NCBI GenBank assembly: GCA_035283685.1
Contig: DATETJ010000011.1
Location: 31,994-95,993, forward strand
Direction: 5' to 3'
DNA length: 64,000 nt
Source: Candidatus Bathyarchaeia archaeon
GTDB lineage: Archaea > Thermoproteota > Bathyarchaeia > Bathyarchaeales > Bathyarchaeaceae
Shown here one piece after another: positions 23,944 to 61,929 of the stretch. Each line of letters opens with the position of its first letter. Within the stretch, counting starts at the first letter, position 1. The position numbers were made by a program, and so were the translations under genes. The notes under the pieces are model-generated. The model saw only the letters and a program-made list of their open reading frames with translations. It did not search any database and was not told the origin of the DNA.

Positions 23944-24669
23944 CTAACCTGTTTTGCTGGCACTTTTAACGTGCACTACAACTGGGGGCTCGGGCAGTGC
24001 TGGCGTGGATGCTGTTTTTGTTTCAGGTTCTTTCCATGGCAGTGTGGAGTCGCCGAGTAAGAGATTCGAGAGTTGACTTCTAAGTGATTCCAAGTCAGTT
24101 TTTTCGTAGTTAACTTTCTTTAGGCCATCTTGAACCATCTGGAGAGCGGTTTGGTAAGCGGTGTCGTCGATTCTGCCGATTTCGCGTTCAATTTCGATGT
24201 TGATGAGTGCTGAGTTGAGTTCTCTTATCTGTGAGTTGCACTTTGCAATCTGCTTGTCTATGGCGTCTAGGTTTGTTTGGGCGTCGGTTCTTAGTTGGTT
24301 TAGGGCGCCTTCGAAGTTCTTGTGCAGTTCGGTGAACATTTCAGATGGGATTTTCTTTTTGTCGACTAGGTCGTTGAGTGCTTGGTCTTTTCGCCATATT
24401 AGTGGGATTTCGTCGCATAAGGCTTTGACTCTGATTTTGATTGAGGGTGTGAGTGTGATTTCTTCGCCTTCCATTTTGAACTGGTCGCTTGGGTAGCTTT
24501 GGAATTCTCCGTCGCCGTGTTCTAAGAAGACTCCGTTGACTCTGCCGTTTGGGGTGACTGCGAATGATGCTATTTTGCCGACTTGTCTGCCGTATTCGTC
24601 TTTGACGGGTTTGCCTATGTATAGAAAAAGGTTGGATGTAGGTCGTGCTGACATTTTCTTACACCTCAT
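23944..24669 (-). CDS. cdvA: CdvA (PRC-barrel plus coiled coil plus C-terminal tail)
   Basis: PRC-barrel-like IGKPVKDEYGRQVGKIASFAVTPNGRVNGVFLEHGDGEF, a long coiled coil, and a Pro-rich tail PALPEPPVVVHV. The real start may be the internal MSARPTS. Confidence 0.8.
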   Translation of the reverse strand: MRCKKMSARPTSNLFLYIGKPVKDEYGRQVGKIASFAVTPNGRVNGVFLEHGDGEFQSYPSDQFKMEGEEITLTPSIKIRVKALCDEIPLIWRKDQALNDLVDKKKIPSEMFTELHKNFEGALNQLRTDAQTNLDAIDKQIAKCNSQIRELNSALINIEIEREIGRIDDTAYQTALQMVQDGLKKVNYEKTDLESLRSQLSNLLLGDSTLPWKEPETKTASTPALPEPPVVVHVKSASKTG

Positions 24670-24684
24670 TTATGCTTGTGTGGT

Positions 24685-25353
24685 TTAGCCTTGGGTTTCC
24701 GAGGTCGCTGTTTTCTCTGCTCCTAGGACGGCGGGCATCCCGGCGGGCAGGTCTGGGAATTTCTCTTTGATTCTTTGTTCGGCTACTGATGCTGCTTCGG
24801 TTAGGATCTTTTGGGCGTCTTCGTTGGCTGATTCGAAGTTTATGGTTAGTCCTGTGCTTTGTCCTGCGTCGATTATGATGCCGTTGAGTAGGTTGCCTAT
24901 TTGTCCTAGTTCTCGTTCGGCTTCTGGGAATATGCTTGCCATGCCTGTTCTGACTGTGCGTAGGACGCCGACTGCTGGGGCTAGTGTTGAGACTACGTCG
25001 CCGAGTTCGCCTACGGTTCTTAGTCTGAGTACGATTTGTTCTAGTGCTAATCGTGCGTGCATTATCATTTTTTCCATTTTTCGGACTTCGGCTAGTTCGT
25101 TGGCGAAGACGTTTGCGCGTGGCATGTCGTGTTTGCTGTAGGCTTCAACTATGCGGACGAATATGGTTTTGTCGCGTTCTGTGAATCTTTCTGCTGCGTT
25201 GTCTAAACGTTGGACTTGGAGTTCAATTCGGCGTACGGCGAAGTCTAAGCGCGGCTTGAGCGGGCCTGGTGGTCGTACTGCTTCTTTGAGTCTTGATTGG
25301 ATGGGTGTGGTTTCTTCTCTTTCTCCCCATTTTTTGGCAAATCTTTCTGACAT
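24685..25353 (-). CDS. ESCRT-III (Snf7-like) paralogue without winged helix
   Basis: 222 aa. Its helical pattern is similar to the N-terminal half of the 23024-23911 product (AVRRIELQVQRLDNAAERFTERDK.. versus TVRRLKTQQLRLEQATVRLRERDK..). Confidence 0.75.
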   Translation of the reverse strand: MSERFAKKWGEREETTPIQSRLKEAVRPPGPLKPRLDFAVRRIELQVQRLDNAAERFTERDKTIFVRIVEAYSKHDMPRANVFANELAEVRKMEKMIMHARLALEQIVLRLRTVGELGDVVSTLAPAVGVLRTVRTGMASIFPEAERELGQIGNLLNGIIIDAGQSTGLTINFESANEDAQKILTEAASVAEQRIKEKFPDLPAGMPAVLGAEKTATSETQG

Positions 25354-25804: not shown

Positions 25805-25863
25805 GAGCTAGGGTTCCTGTAATTTCACCATATTTTCTTTTCTCTTTGTTTAGCTGTGGCTCG

Positions 25864-26205
25864 TTAGTATGAGTGCAGAAAATTTTTTTGCGGTGGAAGT
25901 TCTACTTTTCTGTTTGCTTTGTAGTTTCTGTTTTGGTTTTTGATTGGTGTTTTGGGCTCAGTGGAACTTGCGGCTGGGTCTAATAGTTGCTGCTTGAGGT
26001 CGTTGACTGGTAAGTTGCTCGTTGTTTTGCCCACCTTAGCAAGTATGAATGTGTGTTTCTGGTTTAGGTAGGCTATGCCTGCTCCGTGTCCGCCCACAGG
26101 CGTGGGTTCACCAGGTTCCTGTTCGCTTTCAAGTATGTTTAGGACTTGTATGACTTGCGTGATAGGGATGGGTTGGTTTCCCATGTAGGCGAATATACCG
26201 CACAT
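25864..26205 (-). pseudogene. Truncated class-II (Ntn) glutamine amidotransferase N-terminal fragment
   Basis: It starts MCGIFAYMG and has GGHGAGIAYL, like the GlmS/PurF-type Ntn domain. After about 75 aa it runs into low-complexity AC-rich sequence. No remainder of the domain is present in any frame downstream. Confidence 0.5.
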
Positions 26206-26273
26206 ACGGGTAAGGTTGCATGATGATTCTTTTAACTCTGTGGCTGAAGGCTGAATGTGGTGTTTGTATGCGT

Positions 26274-26486
26274 TGCGGGAAGAGTAATTTCAAAAGAAGA
26301 AGGGAACAATCGCTTAGCGCCTTCTTCTACTTTGTGTCTAGTTGTTGTTGACCATGCGAGCGTAGACTGTTTGTGGCGGGTTTCTGTTCAGATGTTGTTA
26401 ACTTCGGCTTAGAACAAGTAATAATACCGTGCTGGTTTCTGTTCAGAAGTAGTAGTCTGCGTCGCCTGTCTGTTGACTACTTCTTT
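26274..26486 (+). repeat. Copy A of a dispersed GT-rich structured repeat family
   Basis: It shares conserved blocks and two hairpins with 49081-49338 (-) and its 5' half with 58694-58806 (+). Hairpin 1 pairs 26295-26303 with 26320-26328. Hairpin 2 pairs 26445-26457 with 26475-26484. Confidence 0.8.
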
Positions 26487-26722
26487 GTTGGGAGGCGGCG
26501 GGGCTGTGTGCTTGTTGAAGTTGACTTGCGCTATAGTGTCATCATCAACTTATGTTTGCAGGTTTGCAGGTTGTGCGGCTGTGTGGATGTTAGTGTTGAC
26601 GATGCGTTGGAAACGCTGTACAAGGATTTGGCTGAAAGCAGGTTTCAAACAGGTCAAGGGGGGTCGAAGAAAGGGAATATGCCGCGACGTGGCAGTGAAG
26701 TGAGTGCCCAGGTTGTCATTGG

Positions 26723-27520
26723 CTATTGTGCATATCGTGGTTTTCTTGTCTTGAAGATGATGGTGTATGGAACCTTGCTCCATATGTCGTAATATTTCGA
26801 GTAATATTCTGCTGCGTATGGAATCTTTTTTCGCTCCTTTTCGCTCATTATGTCAACATTGTAGGGTTCGGGCTCTAGAATTCTCTCGACACTGAAGCCA
26901 GTGTTAACGAGCAGGTCGAAATAGTCTTGGAGGGTTCTTTGGCCTGTGTTGAATTTGGCTGTCCTCTTCTCAGCTCGCCATTTCCATTGGCGTTTTCTTC
27001 GGTCAAAATAGTTGCCGACCGCCCACATTCTTTTTCTCCCGTAGCGGACAACTCGACCTCTGTGAGCAATGGGATGAACAACAGCGAAAATGAACAAACC
27101 CGATTTCCTCAGCACTCTAAATGTTTCTTGAAATGCCCTCAGAAAATCGTCGATGTAATCGATGGCAAATGAGGAGAGGACAATGTCAAAGCTTTCATCC
27201 ATGAACGCACTGAGATCTTCCATGTTGCCTACGTAGAAGGCAACGTTAACTCGTTCTTTCTTCGCAAGTTTTCGAGCGTGTTTGATCTGCTCTTCTGAGA
27301 TGTCGAGACCGACGGGTTTCGCGCCCCACTTGGCGAGAACTATTGAATTCTGTCCTCCACCGCAACCGATCTCCAAGATGTTCTTGCCCTTAACGTTTCC
27401 AAGCAATTTAAGCTCAGACTCGCCGGGAGAAATCGGTCCGTAATGCACATCTTCAAGCGACATCGTGGTCTTCGCCTGATAACTTTGGGAGATGATGTTC
27501 CAGCCGTTTCGAGCTGACAT
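26723..27520 (-). CDS. Class I SAM-dependent methyltransferase
   Basis: Motif I ILEIGCGGGQNS, then GLDISEEQI and FDIVLSSFAIDYI. Confidence 0.85.
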   Translation of the reverse strand: MSARNGWNIISQSYQAKTTMSLEDVHYGPISPGESELKLLGNVKGKNILEIGCGGGQNSIVLAKWGAKPVGLDISEEQIKHARKLAKKERVNVAFYVGNMEDLSAFMDESFDIVLSSFAIDYIDDFLRAFQETFRVLRKSGLFIFAVVHPIAHRGRVVRYGRKRMWAVGNYFDRRKRQWKWRAEKRTAKFNTGQRTLQDYFDLLVNTGFSVERILEPEPYNVDIMSEKERKKIPYAAEYYSKYYDIWSKVPYTIIFKTRKPRYAQ

Positions 27521-31845: not shown

Positions 31846-33041
31846 CACAGAAAGACAGAGGACTACTGGCTCTACTGGGCGCGGCACACAGCCTCAACCA
31901 CTCACTCTTCCTAATCGCCCCACCACTACTGCTCATCATAATGAAAGACCTGAACACAACCAACCTACTAGTCCTCGGCACAATTGGCACAATAACATCG
32001 CTAATCTACGGCGTAGGCTCCCTAGTCGGAGGACCACTCGCCGACAAAATAAGCGAAACAAAAATCATCGCCCTCGCCCTCGCCTTGGCAGGCGCATCCA
32101 CATTTGTCCTCATATTCGCTAGGGATGTACTGATCTACAGCCTAGCCATGTTCCTTATGGCTGCGTGGGCAAGCCTCTACCACCCCACAGCCAACTCACT
32201 AATCTCCAAAGTTTATCATGGGCAGATGGGCGAAGCCATGGGCATCCACGGAGTAGGAGGCACGGTGGGCATCATGTTCACGCCAATCTTAGCCTTCGCC
32301 ATAGGCATAGCTGTAGACTGGCGCATCTCCTTCATCATCTTCGGCATATTCTGCATACTAATAGGACTCATCATCTCAAGAAACCCAACCCAAACCAGAA
32401 GCACTGAATCTAAACTCGGAGTCCTCGGAGTTTTCAAGATACCCGGACTGTTGACAATCCTCGTATTCAACGTGTTCATAGGCTTATACATGAAAGGCAT
32501 CGAACTATTCCTTCCAGCATATCTTACATTCAAGCCATTCGCCGCCTTAGGCGAGGAAAACGCCAGCCTCTGGGCAGCCACAGCCACAACCCTAGTGTTA
32601 GCCAGCGGCGTGCCCGGACAATGGCTGGGCGGAAGAGCAGCCGACCGCGTCGGCTCCAAAAAAGTCCTCATCACAGTCTCAGCAGGAATAACAGCTGCAC
32701 TTTTGCTCTTGCTGTTCACTCCACCCGCCTTCGCGTTCATTGGCGTCGCAGCCTTCATCATTCTTTACGGATTGTCTTTCTATGGACACCAACCAGCGCT
32801 GAACTCGCTAACAGGGCTAATAACTCCGCCAGAAAGGCGAGGCGCAGTCTACGGCATATTCTTCTTCACCAGTTTCGGCTTGGGCTCACTTTCCCAAGCT
32901 GTAACAGGTTACTTGATGTATAGTTATCCGAGCAACCCAGAGTATTCATTTTACCTCCTCACAATAATCGCGGTAATAGCGCTCGTTCTTTCAACCCTTA
33001 TCCCAGATAGAAGACAAAAACAAGACAAAGTAGCCATGTGA
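31842..33041 (+). CDS. MFS transporter (start probably CTG 31842; first ATG is 31941)
   Basis: About 12 TM helices and GGPLADK after TM2. The in-frame upstream stretch LTQKDRGLLALLGAAHSLNHSLFLIAPPLLLII looks like TM1, has no ATG/GTG/TTG, and is preceded by GAGGAGG at 31831-31837. Confidence 0.75.
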   Translation: MTQKDRGLLALLGAAHSLNHSLFLIAPPLLLIIMKDLNTTNLLVLGTIGTITSLIYGVGSLVGGPLADKISETKIIALALALAGASTFVLIFARDVLIYSLAMFLMAAWASLYHPTANSLISKVYHGQMGEAMGIHGVGGTVGIMFTPILAFAIGIAVDWRISFIIFGIFCILIGLIISRNPTQTRSTESKLGVLGVFKIPGLLTILVFNVFIGLYMKGIELFLPAYLTFKPFAALGEENASLWAATATTLVLASGVPGQWLGGRAADRVGSKKVLITVSAGITAALLLLLFTPPAFAFIGVAAFIILYGLSFYGHQPALNSLTGLITPPERRGAVYGIFFFTSFGLGSLSQAVTGYLMYSYPSNPEYSFYLLTIIAVIALVLSTLIPDRRQKQDKVAM

Positions 33042-48299: not shown

Positions 48300-48983
48300 C
48301 TACAATATCAATGGGTAGATTTCTTTTGTTACGTATTCTGTGTATTTGTTTTTGTCTGTTAGGTTGAAGACTGTGACTGATGCGTCTCTGGTTATGCCTA
48401 CAACGTAGCCGTATTCTCTAGCCCGTGCCACAATATACCATAGGTTGCCGTGTTTACTGTACTCATCAAACAACGACGTGCCCACCAAATCTGGGCCATA
48501 AAGCGACAACTTCTCCACATTCGGAATATCCACATTATCGAAGAACGTGATCTTCGTATCCTCAGGATTCCTAGTGTGAAAACCCTTAATCGTCTCAGGC
48601 GAAATCCGAGCCTGAACCACACCTCCCACCTTCTCAAAAACAATGTCACTAAGCTTATTAGCAATGAAGTTGGCAACCCGCTTCTTCTCAACCACGGTTA
48701 ACATTATCTGCTTCTTGAACTGACTGAAACTGAACATGGCTTCAACCGTTTTGGGCAACGGCACAACCTTACCCCTATGAAACACATGAAGCACAAAATC
48801 ATGAGAATAAACGCCCACAACATTGCCCTCCTTGGCTACGAGATTCATCACTTCAGTCACCAAAGTGAACTTGTAATCGCTCTCCACAAAATCCTCCTCC
48901 ACGCGGAAACCCTTCAACCTAGACGCAATGTCCGCCAACGACGCTGACTCAGCAACTTTGAACACTTTGCCAGCCACAACCAC
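48300..48983 (-). CDS. Hypothetical protein
   Basis: 227-aa ORF with non-repetitive, protein-like composition. No family recognised. Confidence 0.5.
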   Translation of the reverse strand: MVVAGKVFKVAESASLADIASRLKGFRVEEDFVESDYKFTLVTEVMNLVAKEGNVVGVYSHDFVLHVFHRGKVVPLPKTVEAMFSFSQFKKQIMLTVVEKKRVANFIANKLSDIVFEKVGGVVQARISPETIKGFHTRNPEDTKITFFDNVDIPNVEKLSLYGPDLVGTSLFDEYSKHGNLWYIVARAREYGYVVGITRDASVTVFNLTDKNKYTEYVTKEIYPLIL

Positions 48984-49080
48984 GACAAATCCCTCATGAA
49001 ACGCAGTTTCACACGCTCCTCACTCTACATCCCAAGATGCACATAAACCTTACACGCACTCACCACCCCACAACTCAGAC

Positions 49081-49338
49081 AAAGAAGTAGTAGTCAACAA
49101 ACACGCGGCGCAGACTACTACTTCTGAACACAGCCACCTCGGTATTATTACTGATTCTAAGCCGAAGTTAATAACATCTGAAAAAGAAACCGCCACAACA
49201 TGCCGGGCGTTGATGTCACTAGGAACAGTCTTACGACGATGTCCACACAGCCTTCAGCAGCTAAACGCACCCGCAACATGGTAGAAGAAGGCATAAGGGG
49301 CTTACCTCCTTCTTCTTCTGAAATTCGTTTTCCCGCAG
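49081..49338 (-). repeat. Copy C (longest) of the GT-rich structured repeat family, inverted relative to copies A and B
   Basis: The reverse complement aligns with 26274-26486. It contains a perfect 13-bp hairpin (49083-49095 pairs with 49113-49125) and the AGAAGAAGG/CCTTCTTCT hairpin. Confidence 0.8.
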
Positions 49339-49358
49339 AGCAACCTATCAACATACGC

Positions 49359-49402
49359 AAACGTCACGCTAACCAACATTAAACGTCACGCAAACCAACA
49401 TT
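49359..49402. repeat. Tandem 22-nt direct repeat (two units, one mismatch) plus a degenerate third unit
   Basis: AAACGTCACGCTAACCAACATT followed by AAACGTCACGCAAACCAACATT. It abuts copy C. Confidence 0.85.
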
Positions 49403-49625
49403 GAAAGCCACGCTAAAACACCAGCCAACAGCCCCAGACACACCAATCAGAACAAACAACAGAACCCAAAACACAAACAGAAAAGCCCAACTTTCACCAC
49501 AAAAAAAATTTTCTGCACCTATACTAACCCCAAGAACCCAGCCACAGCCCCTAATCGACAAATCTTATATGCACACATCAACAAAAACAGCTTCCCTCAA
49601 AACAAAAAAAAGGAATGAAAACAAC

Positions 49626-50840
49626 ATGATAGATTTCAGCTACACCGAAGAACAACAACTCTTCCGCAAAGCAGTCCACGAATGGAGCATGAAACACCTC
49701 AACCTCGAAGCAGTCAGAAAAATGGACAAAACCGGACAAATGCCACAAGGCCTAGTCAAAGAAATGGCCGACCTAGGCCTACTCATAATGACCGCGCCTG
49801 AGGAACACGGAGGCACAGGCGCCGACTGGATCACAACCTGCATCGCAGCCGAAGAACTAGGCTACGCAGACATAAGCTGCGCCATACCCGTATTCTGGCT
49901 AGTACAATCAAGCTGGGGCTACGTAGTCGACAAATACGCCTCAGAAGACGTTAGAAACGCAGTAATCAGACCCGCCATCAAAGGAGACGCATTCATAGGC
50001 ATAGCCACAACAGAATCCGGCGGAGGCTCAGACGTAGCCGGCTTCAAATCCGTAGCCAAAAAAGACGGCGACAACTGGATAATCAACGGCGAAAAAATGT
50101 ACATCAGCGGCACCGAAGAAGTCCAAAAACTCGGCGGCGGCTACTGGATAACCGCCCGAACCTCACCCGCACCACCAGGAGCACCACACAAAGGCTTAAC
50201 AGGATTCTACATACCAATCAACGCGCCCGGCGTAGAGGTCACCAAACGCTTCGACGACGTAGGCAGAATGGGCATCTCAACTGGTGGCTTCAGCATGAAA
50301 AACGTCAAAATCCCAGACACCTACCGACTGAGCAAAGAGGACGAAGGATTCTACCCCACAATGGAAGGATTCGACCTCGCACGAATACTCATCGGCGCCG
50401 TATGCGTAGGCGTCGCCCAGAGAGTTCTGGAAATCGGCATGGACTACATCAAACAACGCAAAGCATTCGGAAGCCCCATAGGCAAATTCGAAGGCATACA
50501 GTTCGAGTTAGCCGACGACTGGACCGAACTCGAAGCCAGCAGAGCACTGCTCTACCGCACAGCATGGATGATCAACGAACGATACAAAGGCAAAATGTCA
50601 CCACTCGAAGTAGTCAAATACATCTCAGCATGCAAACTGAAAATCCCACCGTTCGCAATGCACGCTGCGGAACACGCAATGGTTTGGATGGGAGCCTACG
50701 GCTACTCGCAGGAATGCCCCTTAGACATGGCGTGGCGCGGCGTAATGTCCTACGTCATCGGCGCAGAAGGAGCCTTGAATATTCAGCGCATAGTCATAGG
50801 CAGAGAACTACTCGGAAAAGAATTCATACCATACAAGTAG
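49626..50840 (+). CDS. Acyl-CoA dehydrogenase
   Basis: MIDFSYTEEQQLFRKAV, GIATTESGGGSDVAG and a C-terminal ..IGAEGALNIQRIVIGREL. I prefer ATG 49626. The 75-aa extension from 49401 is AC-rich low complexity. Confidence 0.85.
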   Translation: MIDFSYTEEQQLFRKAVHEWSMKHLNLEAVRKMDKTGQMPQGLVKEMADLGLLIMTAPEEHGGTGADWITTCIAAEELGYADISCAIPVFWLVQSSWGYVVDKYASEDVRNAVIRPAIKGDAFIGIATTESGGGSDVAGFKSVAKKDGDNWIINGEKMYISGTEEVQKLGGGYWITARTSPAPPGAPHKGLTGFYIPINAPGVEVTKRFDDVGRMGISTGGFSMKNVKIPDTYRLSKEDEGFYPTMEGFDLARILIGAVCVGVAQRVLEIGMDYIKQRKAFGSPIGKFEGIQFELADDWTELEASRALLYRTAWMINERYKGKMSPLEVVKYISACKLKIPPFAMHAAEHAMVWMGAYGYSQECPLDMAWRGVMSYVIGAEGALNIQRIVIGRELLGKEFIPYK

Positions 50841-58596: not shown

Positions 58597-58693
58597 CTGT
58601 GGTTCCGGGCTGAGCCGATTACATATTGAAGCTGCATGGATGTCAATGTTGGTTATGTCCTAGTCTTATCGTCATGATCCACGCTGATAGCGC

Positions 58694-58806
58694 TGCGGGA
58701 AGAGTAATTTCAAAAGAAGAAGGCAACTATCGCTTAGCGCCTTCTTCTACCACGTTGAGGCTGTGGGTGTGCGGGCGTCGTCGTCAAACTGAACCTAGTG
58801 ACATCA
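58694..58806 (+). repeat. Copy B (5' half only) of the GT-rich structured repeat family
   Basis: TGCGGGAAGAGTAATTTCAAAAGAAGAAGG / 16 nt / CCTTCTTCTAC is nearly identical to copy A. It then shares CGTCGTCGT..CCTAGTGACATCA with copy C. Confidence 0.8.
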
Positions 58807-58893
58807 TCAAGCTATGGGTCGCGAAATGTGGAAGTTGTTAAGTATGATTTGGATTCAAAAACTTCCTGTGTGAGCTGGCGCTGAGGTGGGAGC

Positions 58894-60321: not shown

Positions 60322-60490
60322 AGCCTCAACTTTTTCAAAACCCTTGAAGTAATCAGTAAAGTAGTGCTTCGCGGCTCTAAATCTTAGCAGCTTGAATATG
60401 CTGGGCGCCCTTTCTATTTGCAGTGCTGTGACAGTGCGTAAAATAGCGATTAATAGTTGTTCGCGCCAATGAGTCGTCTCTGATTCCCTT

Positions 60491-60530
60491 CAAATGCTAT
60501 TAACTTCGGCTTGAGTCTAGTAGTTACAAC
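60491..60530 (+). repeat. Fragment D of the GT-rich repeat family
   Basis: CAAATGCTATTAACTTCGGCTTGAG compared with CAGATGTT[G/A]TTAACTTCGGCTTAGA in copies A and C. Confidence 0.5.
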
Positions 60531-60781: not shown

Positions 60782-60865
60782 AGAGGCTCACCAGACACGC
60801 ACATACACACATGTCTAATTTGTTCGTTGTGGTTTCAACATTCAAACTGGTGTCTCTCAGAAGTT

Positions 60866-61342
60866 TTAATCGATCAGAACCAGCCCATTCCATACTGTGT
60901 TGTTTTTCGGCGGGATCTTGAATGGTAGCCCAGCGTTTGCCGCTGTCTGAAACGCCTCAATTCCAACAGCTTCCATCGAGGGCCTTGCTTGGAATGGATG
61001 TCTACATGGTTCCCGCGAGCTTACAGTCACACATTCTGAGCACAGCTTGCATGATCCTGCAATGAACCCTACCGCGAAACGGTGACCAAGCTCGAACGCC
61101 TTTGCTTCCATCTTGCAGACTATTCGATGCAGCCTCAATTTAACTGGATCGAGGTACTTTCTGTAGCTTTTGAGAAAAATGTCGCTCTTGTACAGTGCGG
61201 CAACGTTGTCTGCCTTCTTTATTTCCTCTCTCATTTCAACTGGTATTGGAGATTCAATTTGAACTAGAATTGCATGCTTGTATTTGGCCAAGCATTGAAT
61301 GAAACAACATTCGTGGCCCCAAGCTTCTTTGCCATTTTGCAC
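60866..61342 (-). CDS. DUF2284-like metal-binding protein, apparently frameshifted at its 5' end
   Basis: C-terminal CKLCSECVTVSSREPCRHPFQARPSMEAVGIEAF matches my recollection of DUF2284. A 36-aa ORF in another frame (61264-61374) carries a plausible N-terminus. Confidence 0.5.
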   Translation of the reverse strand: MQNGKEAWGHECCFIQCLAKYKHAILVQIESPIPVEMREEIKKADNVAALYKSDIFLKSYRKYLDPVKLRLHRIVCKMEAKAFELGHRFAVGFIAGSCKLCSECVTVSSREPCRHPFQARPSMEAVGIEAFQTAANAGLPFKIPPKNNTVWNGLVLID

Positions 61343-61929
61343 AGGGATTCAGCATGTGTCTCGAATTCGGACATCAACGACCACCATACATTGAAAAATG
61401 TTCAGTGTGGAACGCACATATTTTTTTTCTCATCTGTTGAGCGTCTCCGAGAAGGTTAAGAGTCTTTTTGTTGCTTGCGCTTCCCCTGCCACACCCTATC
61501 GAGCCAACACATCGACCTTATGAATGGCTGATCTTAACACACAAAAGGTAAGAGGATTTATGAGGGAATGTCACCATTCTTCTTCAAATTCTTCCTCTTC
61601 TGTTTCTTCAGTTTCTTCTGTTTCTTCCTCTTCGAATTTATATGTCATTTACTTTCCGCTCCTTGTTCCGTTCCAAGGGCATACCTATAGAACACGAGGC
61701 GCTTATAATCAATTCGATGGAACCCCCTTGGTGTTTCTTTCCTGTTCAACATGTGCTTCGATGGACCATCAGAGCAAGTAGTTCTGACGATCAGTTCAGC
61801 CCGACACGATCCTAGTAGATGGTGCCGCTAAGCAATGCTTCATGCATTTTGGCTATTAGAGAAGGTTAGTGGTGTTTAAAAGCGAGGTTCGCATATATCA
61901 TGGCATTACCTACATGAGGAAGTGAAATT

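Follow-up and report, generated by a model that had tools for sequence, protein, structure and literature searches.

A modular repeat family of Bathyarchaeia resembles a non-autonomous repeat element more than a folded RNA gene

Introduction

The stretch of DNA analysed here (the window; 64,000 nucleotides, positions 31,994 to 95,993 of the forward strand of contig DATETJ010000011.1, Candidatus Bathyarchaeia archaeon, assembly GCA_035283685.1) carries at 26274-26486 a GT-rich sequence that recurs elsewhere in the window, and the question this locus raises is whether such a sequence is an RNA gene, a mobile element or a piece of host DNA with another role. A preliminary description reported three long copies (A, B and C) and a fragment (D), and proposed a non-coding RNA (ncRNA) or an element similar to a MITE (a miniature transposable element with inverted repeats). 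The results showed that the observation itself is real and that the size of the family had been understated. The copies belong to a repeat family which is lineage-specific to a clade of Bathyarchaeia, the flagged sequence resembles a non-autonomous repeat element more closely than it does a gene for a folded RNA, and we hold with moderate confidence that it represents a new family of non-autonomous repeat DNA, similar in kind to REP/BIME, BOX or MITE elements. The proposal thus stands as far as a dispersed, non-coding repeat family is concerned; it does not stand for an ncRNA fold, nor for a canonical MITE, which would have terminal inverted repeats and target-site duplications. As sediment archaea, Bathyarchaeia are abundant and uncultured; no earlier account of their repeat content, or of this family, was found in the searchable literature.

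Results

Census of the repeat family

The family was searched for with a hairpin-plus-flank pattern scan of genomes, metagenome contigs and viral contigs, a search of other genomes being what the preliminary description had suggested. In the genome collection the family was found only in one other Bathyarchaeia metagenome-assembled genome (MAG; CAYLSJ01), with 5 copies 74-88% identical to the window copies, and at least 117 stretches with the pattern were found among the metagenome contigs. In total there are at least 128 distinct copies, none of them more than 97% redundant with another, from at least two species and many metagenome contigs; the set of 128 comprises the distinct copies among the matches listed. 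The viral contigs (IMG/VR) gave 0 pattern matches, and a viral origin was rejected on this result. Eight bacterial pattern matches (L016, L017 and others; loci are given as L numbers) were treated as chance because the flanking motifs of the family were missing, and most of them look like terminators made of a stem plus a T-run. Four of the five MAG copies (L018, L021, L025, L026) are found no more than a few hundred bases from where a contig ends, a hint that short-read assemblies are broken up by the family.

Module architecture

Copies are about 250-700 bases long and consist of hairpin modules in a fixed series. In iterated searches with profiles of seven flanking blocks, the module order proved to be essentially UPGT, UP2, (M4), HP1, (M3, M5), M2 and HP2, with 66 hits for UPGT, 78 for UP2, 144 for HP1, 60 for M2 and 52 for HP2. 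The family is no random mosaic: within every copy all modules share one orientation. Many copies are truncated or rearranged. The core unit, UPGT-UP2-HP1, measures 247 nt at the median (10th-90th percentile 240-289 nt), and the element strand consists of T (35%), G (31%), A (20%) and C (14%).

The 5' start is sharp: up to it the flanks are unrelated and mostly end in ...GGGT, and from it on the copies read TAGTATGAGTGCAGAAAAATTTTTTTGYGGTGAAAGTT...CTTTTCTGTTTGTGTT; the start TAGTATGAG is followed by an A5-7/T5-8 palindrome and then by a GT-rich tract, and an A/T-rich box lies 15-27 nt inside the start. UP2 contains two to three 22-nt direct repeats GCGTGACGTTYAATGTTGGYA, which Tandem Repeats Finder (TRF) recovered in copy C at 49359-49416 with a period of 22, 2.6 copies and 86% matches. 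The conserved core anchored on HP1 covers about 65 nt, cTGCGGGAAaAgaAAT-TTCAR-AAGAAGAAGG-(16-nt loop)-CCTTCTTCT-ACCatgtt, and in several short copies unrelated sequence begins right after CCTTCTTCTACC (HP1-ACC). Two further modules are large-loop palindromes, namely M4 (GTTAGTGTT-N14-AACACTAAC) and HP2 (AGAAGTAGTAGTC-N17-GACTACTACTTCT), and the stems of HP1, M4 and HP2 are all invariant in sequence.

The loop of HP1 had been described as variable, a wording which turned out to be inaccurate: its length is 16 nt in 117 of the 128 copies and it holds a conserved core motif, C-C/G-C-T-T-A/T, with C-C/T-T-T/A at positions 10-13 and loop classes such as ...CGCTTAGCG, ...CCCCTTATA and ...TCCCTTTAG. 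This motif recurs in the loop of M4 and in module M2 (GCCTTAG, GGCTTAG).

Coding and RNA-fold tests

Coding is excluded. Unit lengths are spread evenly over modulo 3 (14, 15 and 21 units) and stops occur in almost every frame on both strands, in agreement with the earlier statement that the copies share no reading frame. Frame-consistent peptides seen by eye in A, B and C (GRVISKEEG...) were rejected, given the stops in other loop classes and lengths that are not multiples of 3.

An RNA fold under selection is not supported. With RNAalifold on 50 units, HP1 was the sole consensus helix and a compensatory change was found in 0 of its 9 pairs, and the full copy C compared with dinucleotide shuffles on both strands gave z = -0.24 and -1.34, that is, no extra stability. 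Recurrent stem variants are uncompensated, as for example AGTCGTC in the 5' arm of HP2. Sixteen HP1-like copies outside the search pattern, obtained from a sequence-only profile, were used to look at further stem variants: G·T wobbles were found in L097, L124, L058 and L039, plain mismatches in L080, L140, L112 and the L063/L137/L075 subfamily, and in L056 and L100 two GC-to-AT changes that are equally explicable as AAG-register slips. Among the stem variants G·T wobbles outnumber A·C, an excess that is expected from the GT-rich composition alone. The earlier argument that conserved stems with variable loops indicate structure therefore fails, since stems and loop motifs are both conserved as sequence and 0 compensatory pairs were found; conservation of this type points to recognition by a protein (of double-stranded DNA, single-stranded DNA or RNA) and not to an RNA fold.

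Rfam gave 0 hits at the gathering threshold for the whole window and 0 at E<=1 for copy C, in line with the earlier failure to match the element to a known RNA family. A tRNA, a tmRNA or a tRNA-derived repeat was rejected, as ARAGORN finds nothing in the window, which holds no tRNA gene, and a C/D-box or H/ACA small RNA, a K-turn and a group II intron were rejected as their motifs were absent on inspection. M3, which from a few copies gave the impression of a covarying hairpin, was also dropped after folding of 41 copies (z ~0).

Turnover between related loci

Which intergenic spacers carry a copy differs between related genomes. In the window about 545 nt of extra DNA lie between a promoter-like GCATATAAGATTT and the start codon of p227, a 227-residue protein encoded next to copy C and divergently from an acyl-CoA dehydrogenase (ACAD). 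The same GCATATAAGATTT is present in L086 and L047; the spacer between p227 and ACAD is about 108 nt and empty in L086 (82-84% protein identity), is likewise short and empty in L047 (ACAD 86% identical), and the copies of these two loci are found elsewhere, 3' of p227 or 3' of ACAD. L075 and L100, about 88% identical, carry copies on opposite sides of the same block. Near-identical loci could be compared in only five usefully overlapping pairs. L126 and L063 (pyrH 98% identical) differ by a clean 83-nt M3 block, present or absent immediately after HP1-ACC and bounded by RTTGTTG and ATGTTGCGG motifs.

Genes are also found within elements. At L060:4236-5663 a 1.43-kb block with an S-adenosylmethionine (SAM) methyltransferase and a GNAT-like gene lies inside the element, between HP1 and M2, flanked by two diverged segments of about 95 nt with the common 11-nt core TAATAGAAACC; L140 (6013-6064) and L064 have one such segment and no genes. 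In L137 a DUF4382 gene lies between UP2 and M4-HP1.

Placement relative to genes

The copies are intergenic, and the open reading frames (ORFs) which overlap them are artefacts of the stop-poor CA-rich strand. Orientation was counted with flanking genes of at least 150 aa, as ORFs of at least 80 aa included spurious ones running through the stop-poor repeat. Downstream genes were on the same strand in 36 cases and on the opposite strand in 45, and upstream genes in 37 and 38, respectively; divergent, convergent and tandem contexts are all present, and there is no orientation bias to flanking genes. A 5' untranslated region, promoter or terminator tied to one gene orientation, which fitted the first few cases, was rejected for this reason over the 128 copies. 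Among co-oriented upstream genes, 10 of 21 stop within 65 nt of the 5' boundary, which places the T7-8 run closely 3' of the stop codon.

tRNA genes often adjoin copies (L018, L110, L111, L122, L127 and L144; upstream in L142 and L081), and two elements start about 12-25 nt from a tRNA 3' end. A role as tRNA promoter was rejected, for between HP1 and the gene each downstream tRNA has a TATA-like box of its own.

Class-I SAM methyltransferases of the Methyltransf_11 type make up 8 of 150 element-adjacent genes in comparison to at most 1 of 150 control genes, a difference uncorrected for multiple testing. They were seen in the window (26723-27520, minus strand) and in L128, L134, L039, L086, L107, L071, L102 and L060; they are 30-44% identical to one another, 6 of 9 converge on the 3' side of the element, and GNAT acetyltransferases stand alongside them in several loci.

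Copies in the window

The HP1 hairpin AGAAGAAGG-N16-CCTTCTTCT is perfect in A, B and C, as had been reported (26295-26328, 49283-49316 and 58715-58748), and with up to 3 mismatches tolerated the window holds 4 HP1 matches in comparison to 0.06 expected from shuffles. The loop sequences of the three copies are as quoted earlier, the first 30 nt of A and C do differ at 4 positions (87% identity), and the 13-bp stem of HP2, perfect in C, carries a 3-nt deletion in A. Identity is 95% between A and B (61 nt) and 86% between A and C (115 nt), and an additional block TAGTGACATCA is common to all three.

The coordinates given in the preliminary description were too narrow, since A and C reach about 200-400 nt further 5': 25863-25950 in A matches 49528-49440 in C with 80% identity. 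Copy A extends over about 25865-26620, including a unique insert of 320 nt, and copy C over 49526-49080 (minus strand). C has the full long form (UPGT, UP2, HP1, M3, M2, HP2); A has UPGT, the insert, then HP1, M5, M2 and HP2, followed by degenerate remnants of M3 and M4; B is 5'-truncated and has HP1 and M3 only. For fragment D a 24-nt match with 88-92% identity was recovered at 60489-60512, and because the match is only 24 nt long and was missed by the iterated module hidden Markov models (HMMs), D is regarded as marginal. The features are as follows.

Copy A
25865-25950, plus strand: UPGT 5' module, with start TAGTATGAG, A/T palindrome GCAGAAAATTTTTTTGC and GT-rich stretch (80% identical to C; HMM hit; 5' boundary alignment of about 60 copies)
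25951-26270, no strand: unique 320-nt insert in the usual place of UP2 (no similarity to any other locus, no Pfam hit)
26274-26330, plus strand: HP1 core, made of TGCGGGAAGAGTAATTTCAAA, 9-bp stem, 16-nt loop, stem and AC (hairpin 26295-26328)
26331-26370, plus strand: M5-like linker, limits approximate (window architecture UPGT, HP1, M5, M2, HP2)
26371-26435, plus strand: M2, GTGGCGG...TTAACTTCGGCTTAGAA...GTAATAATACCG (86% identical to 49198-49134)
26440-26490, plus strand: HP2, AGAAGTAGTAGTC-N17-GACTAC---TTCT, 3' arm with the 3-nt deletion
26520-26620, plus strand: degenerate 3' remnants, with M3-like TATAGTGTCATCATCAA at 26532-26548 (3 mismatches)
about 26590-26601, plus strand: left arm of M4, GTTAGTGTTGAC, without its partner arm (direct comparison with M4 copies)
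Copy C
49440-49526, minus strand: UPGT, with TAGTATAGG at 49526 and an A4T8 palindrome at about 49513-49501
49339-49439, minus strand: UP2 with 22-nt direct repeats GCGTGACGTTTAATGTTGGTTA at 49359-49416 (TRF; aligned in 50 units)
49277-49338, minus strand: HP1 core (hairpin 49283-49316)
49205-49262, minus strand: M3, GCTGAAGGCTGTGTGGACATCGTCGTAAGACTGTTCCTAGTGACATCAACG (82% identical to 58768-58806; 41 HMM hits; not a robust hairpin)
49134-49198, minus strand: M2 (module comparison, HMM)
49080-49130, minus strand: HP2, perfect 13-bp stem with 17-nt loop
Copy B
58690-58750, plus strand: HP1 core only, 5' modules absent (hairpin 58715-58748; 95% identical to A)
58765-58810, plus strand: M3 (pairwise match and HMM)
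Fragment D
60489-60512, plus strand: 24-nt piece of M2, TTCAAATGCTATTAACTTCGGCTT, marginal (88-92% identical to the M2 cores of A and C; below the HMM threshold)

Genes around the window copies

The window sequence lies inside a 372-kb metagenome contig, ena:ERZ27254843:k141_2883608, and near-identical strain contigs occur in several samples. Proteins identified in the window with Pfam include CdvA, electron-transfer flavoprotein subunits and ACAD. At 23944-25353 (minus strand), just upstream of copy A, the cdvA gene (PRC barrel plus CdvA coiled coil by Pfam) adjoins an ORF which resembles ESCRT-III/Snf7 by eye, and the two would be the archaeal Cdv cell-division pair. A 113-aa ORF at 25864-26205 (minus strand), which starts with MCGIFAYMG, falls mostly within the insert of copy A; some 30 residues at its C-terminus (~30) are translated from the repeat's antisense strand, and this tail resembles the spurious N-terminal extension of ACAD described below. 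It has no Pfam hit and no homolog among the fetched loci, and may be a gene remnant or a spurious ORF; an amidotransferase N-terminus (MCGIF...) was considered and rejected, the likeness being by eye only and lacking Pfam support.

The ACAD ORF of 479 aa (49401-50840, plus strand) is about 75 residues too long, running through the CA-rich strand of copy C, which is poor in stops; the Pfam domain begins at residue 82, and the true start is likely MIDFSYTEEQ at about 49626. Public gene calls on the identical sequence conflict, giving 404 aa in L001 and 479 aa in L002-L004. On the other side of copy C, p227 (48300-48983, minus strand) has no Pfam domain and 1637 homologs at E<=1e-20, mostly labelled Bathyarchaeia, and is a widespread conserved protein; it is divergent from ACAD in three species. 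Near fragment D, strain contig L008 has no DUF2284 gene called between a 71-aa ORF and the Alba gene, and in other strains DUF2284 is at window 60866-61342 (L006/L007 compared, window ~60860-61900); this difference may be strain-level variation.

Discussion

How a repeat family might move and persist

If the elements are non-autonomous repeat DNA, the family would be gained, lost and reshuffled at the DNA level with no RNA fold under selection. The invariant palindromes, the loop motif C-Y-T-T-A-G/T and the 22-nt repeats would then be recognition sites for a trans-acting protein, such as a recombinase or perhaps an HUH-type enzyme that works on hairpins in single-stranded form, and the short ATGTTG(C)GG junction motifs may promote gain and loss of modules. 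Hairpins are subterminal: the A/T palindrome stands 10-28 nt from the 5' end of the core unit, and HP1 stops 3 nt short of its 3' end; together with the missing inverted repeats and target-site duplications, the strand asymmetry and the alternative 3' ends at HP2, this is what single-strand mobilisation of the HUH type would produce. The 5' flanks are biased (T at -1 in 41 of 55 units, G at -3 in 37 of 55), and these bases may belong to the element itself. The T7-8 run 20 nt inside the 5' end is probably an archaeal oligo-T terminator for neighbouring genes, and the T-rich tract on the opposite strand after HP1 probably terminates transcription likewise. Such a putative terminator effect could explain why copies are tolerated and partly conserved. 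The bolder form of this reading, in which the element would be the cis site of a new archaeal DNA-mobilisation or recombination system that spreads the element and also moves gene blocks at cores such as TAATAGAAACC, is in our view very unlikely; in one form of it an HUH-type or site-specific enzyme would read the large-loop hairpins with CYTTAG.

Several results weigh against the reading as non-autonomous repeat DNA. The edges of the copies were compared for MITE hallmarks, as had been suggested, and none were found: there are no terminal inverted repeats in 55 units (where the first 30 nt of a unit are set against the last 30 nt in reverse complement, the longest match averages 4.33 nt, in comparison to 4.51 nt for shuffled sequence), and no target-site duplication at the unit ends in 54 units (for 12-nt flanks, 3.19 nt matched within the own unit in comparison to 3.13 nt between unrelated copies). 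A single possible duplication, degenerate and 9 bp long, flanks copy C (AAGATTTGT and AAGGTTTAT) and is a candidate only. The 444 neighbouring ORFs and the 150 adjacent genes include no member of a transposase, integrase or Rep family, and in about 0.83 Mb of family-bearing DNA around the copies there was neither a TnpA, TnpB or RAYT-like gene nor a parent insertion sequence with the same ends. The 128 copies include no near-identical pairs that would indicate recent transposition. A base-precise empty site was not found either, since the closest relatives are only 82% identical, with no p227 homologs between 82% and 100% identity.

Persistence and order weigh in the same direction. Copies lie just downstream of pyrH in 5 loci of two clades (29-252 nt away; in a sixth, L060, the copy is about 1 kb away), and conservation of the orthologous copies exceeds that of pyrH third codon positions, 83% in comparison to 58% for L140/L064 and 79% in comparison to 73% for L063/L073, with many indel columns in the copies. 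The slower change suggests constraint or gene conversion and would fit a host function as well. A transcription unit, too, would be compatible with the strict collinearity, the sharp 5' start and the asymmetric strands, and tRNA genes downstream of HP1 are co-oriented with it in 6 of 6 cases (66-286 nt away).

Alternative explanations

These last points are shared with a transcribed RNA family, that is, small or long ncRNA genes or cis-acting RNA modules, in which an RNA-binding protein or a complementary RNA would recognise CYUUAG as presented by HP1, M4 and M2, and the unit would have its promoter or its terminator in the A/T palindrome close to the 5' start. We consider this rather unlikely. 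The conserved start with its A/T-rich box, the fixed module order in a single orientation, the asymmetric element strand, the large loops with a shared motif, the excess of G·T wobbles over A·C, the co-oriented tRNA genes and the slow change of orthologous copies all agree with it, but the G·T excess is what the composition predicts, HP1 is the only consensus helix and has no compensatory changes, recurrent stem variants are left uncompensated, folding is no better than in shuffled sequence, Rfam has no match, and truncated and rearranged copies are common. Conservation above third codon positions is the main argument for RNA function or for a function at the level of the host. The latter would make the repeat a cis-acting DNA element that spread and was kept for its usefulness, with the 22-nt repeats and palindromes binding a chromosomal or regulatory protein (architecture, insulation or a regulon) and the oligo-T tracts as putative bidirectional transcription terminators. 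Stems, loop motifs and 22-nt repeats conserved as sequence and not as structure would be expected of such sites, the closeness of upstream stop codons to the 5' boundary agrees with termination, and independence of orientation suits a bidirectional terminator or an insulator. Against it, copy C stands between a promoter and its gene, where a terminator would harm, occupancy is not conserved between related genomes, and many truncated copies are without the T-run or without the repeats; we regard this explanation as decidedly unlikely.

The gene block in L060 leads to a further alternative, namely that the elements are attachment sites of an undescribed cassette-capture or integration system, with accessory genes inserted and excised at sequences internal to the element. 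The block is bracketed by the two ~95-nt segments with core TAATAGAAACC and the corresponding elements of L140 and L064 are gene-free; the unique DNA between UPGT and HP1 in copy A, the DUF4382 gene of L137 and the frequency of Methyltransf_11 genes beside elements could be read in the same way. L060 is, however, the one clear case, its flanking segments are merely ~65-70% alike, no recombinase gene was found near copies, the HP1 flanks are without integron attC core sites, most copies hold no inserted gene, and the methyltransferase enrichment is the uncorrected one, all of which makes this explanation highly improbable. Decaying duplicated spacer DNA, from local segmental duplications without family identity, had been put forward as what would refute the preliminary description. 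The window copies taken alone, diverged (86-95%) and rearranged or truncated, with a unique insert in A, would agree with it, but the census overturned it: an identical invariant core in 128 distinct copies from many genomes and samples, a conserved architecture and conservation above third codon positions refute it and leave it next to no probability.

Significance

A repeat family of such size breaks assemblies and misleads gene callers, as the false 75-residue N-terminal extension of ACAD and the repeat-derived C-terminal tail on ORF 25864-26205 show within the window, and it marks sites where relatives differ in gene content. If a dedicated enzyme does bind the hairpins and the 22-nt repeats, a new archaeal mechanism of mobilisation or recombination would be at hand; if the elements are transcribed, they would form a large new archaeal RNA family; and the family would become more interesting with either the enzyme or the transcript found. 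Under either reading, the consensus and the module models permit masking and annotation of Bathyarchaeia genomes.

Comparison with known systems

Integron attC sites and CALIN clusters have been reported in Archaea too (PMC9668308). The family resembles attC in having hairpin-forming sites near accessory genes, with one element bracketing a two-gene block. It differs in that attC sites conserve structure whereas the family stems conserve sequence; HP1 has a perfect stem flanked by AATTTCAR and ACC and no RYYYAAC/GTTRRRY core sites, and the copies are solitary, with no cassette arrays and no integron integrase among adjacent genes. With core sites, arrays and intI absent, identity with attC was rejected.

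MITEs, such as the Correia elements of Neisseria and SM1-SM4 of Sulfolobus, are likewise small, non-coding, multi-copy intergenic insertions whose occupancy varies between relatives and which may supply promoters or terminators; the family lacks the defining terminal inverted repeats and target-site duplications, and no parent insertion sequence was found. BOX elements of Streptococcus pneumoniae (boxA-boxB-boxC) are, like the family, modular and collinear with optional or variable internal modules, intergenic, non-coding and without a transposase of their own. They are about 100-200 nt long with a predicted stable RNA fold, whereas the family shows no excess folding, and no sequence relationship is expected.

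Non-autonomous elements derived from IS200/IS605 (PATEs) and other HUH-mobilised single-strand elements (IS91, Helitron-like) share the absence of terminal inverted repeats and target-site duplications and the strand asymmetry. The family also has subterminal hairpins at both ends (the A/T palindrome and HP1) and a biased 5' flank, with the boundary directly after GGGT, and its 3' ends at the second hairpin HP2 resemble read-through at a terminator hairpin. In contrast to PATEs, however, the two end hairpins are unrelated in sequence, their loops are much larger than those of IS608-type ends, and no TnpA, TnpB or Rep gene was seen in the 0.83 Mb of family-bearing DNA.

REP/BIME elements of enterobacteria and pseudomonads are repetitive extragenic palindromes mobilised by RAYT/TnpA-REP Y1 transposases, and REP elements can act as terminators or stabilisers. 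In comparison to these, the family has far longer units (247 nt or more), palindrome loops of 14-17 nt, modules all in one orientation where BIME units alternate, 22-nt direct repeats, a GT-rich tract and an archaeal host, and no GTAG-type motif or RAYT-like gene was seen near its copies. In common with them, it is multi-copy, intergenic, non-coding and composite, it has neither terminal inverted repeats nor target duplications, and its palindromes are conserved in sequence.

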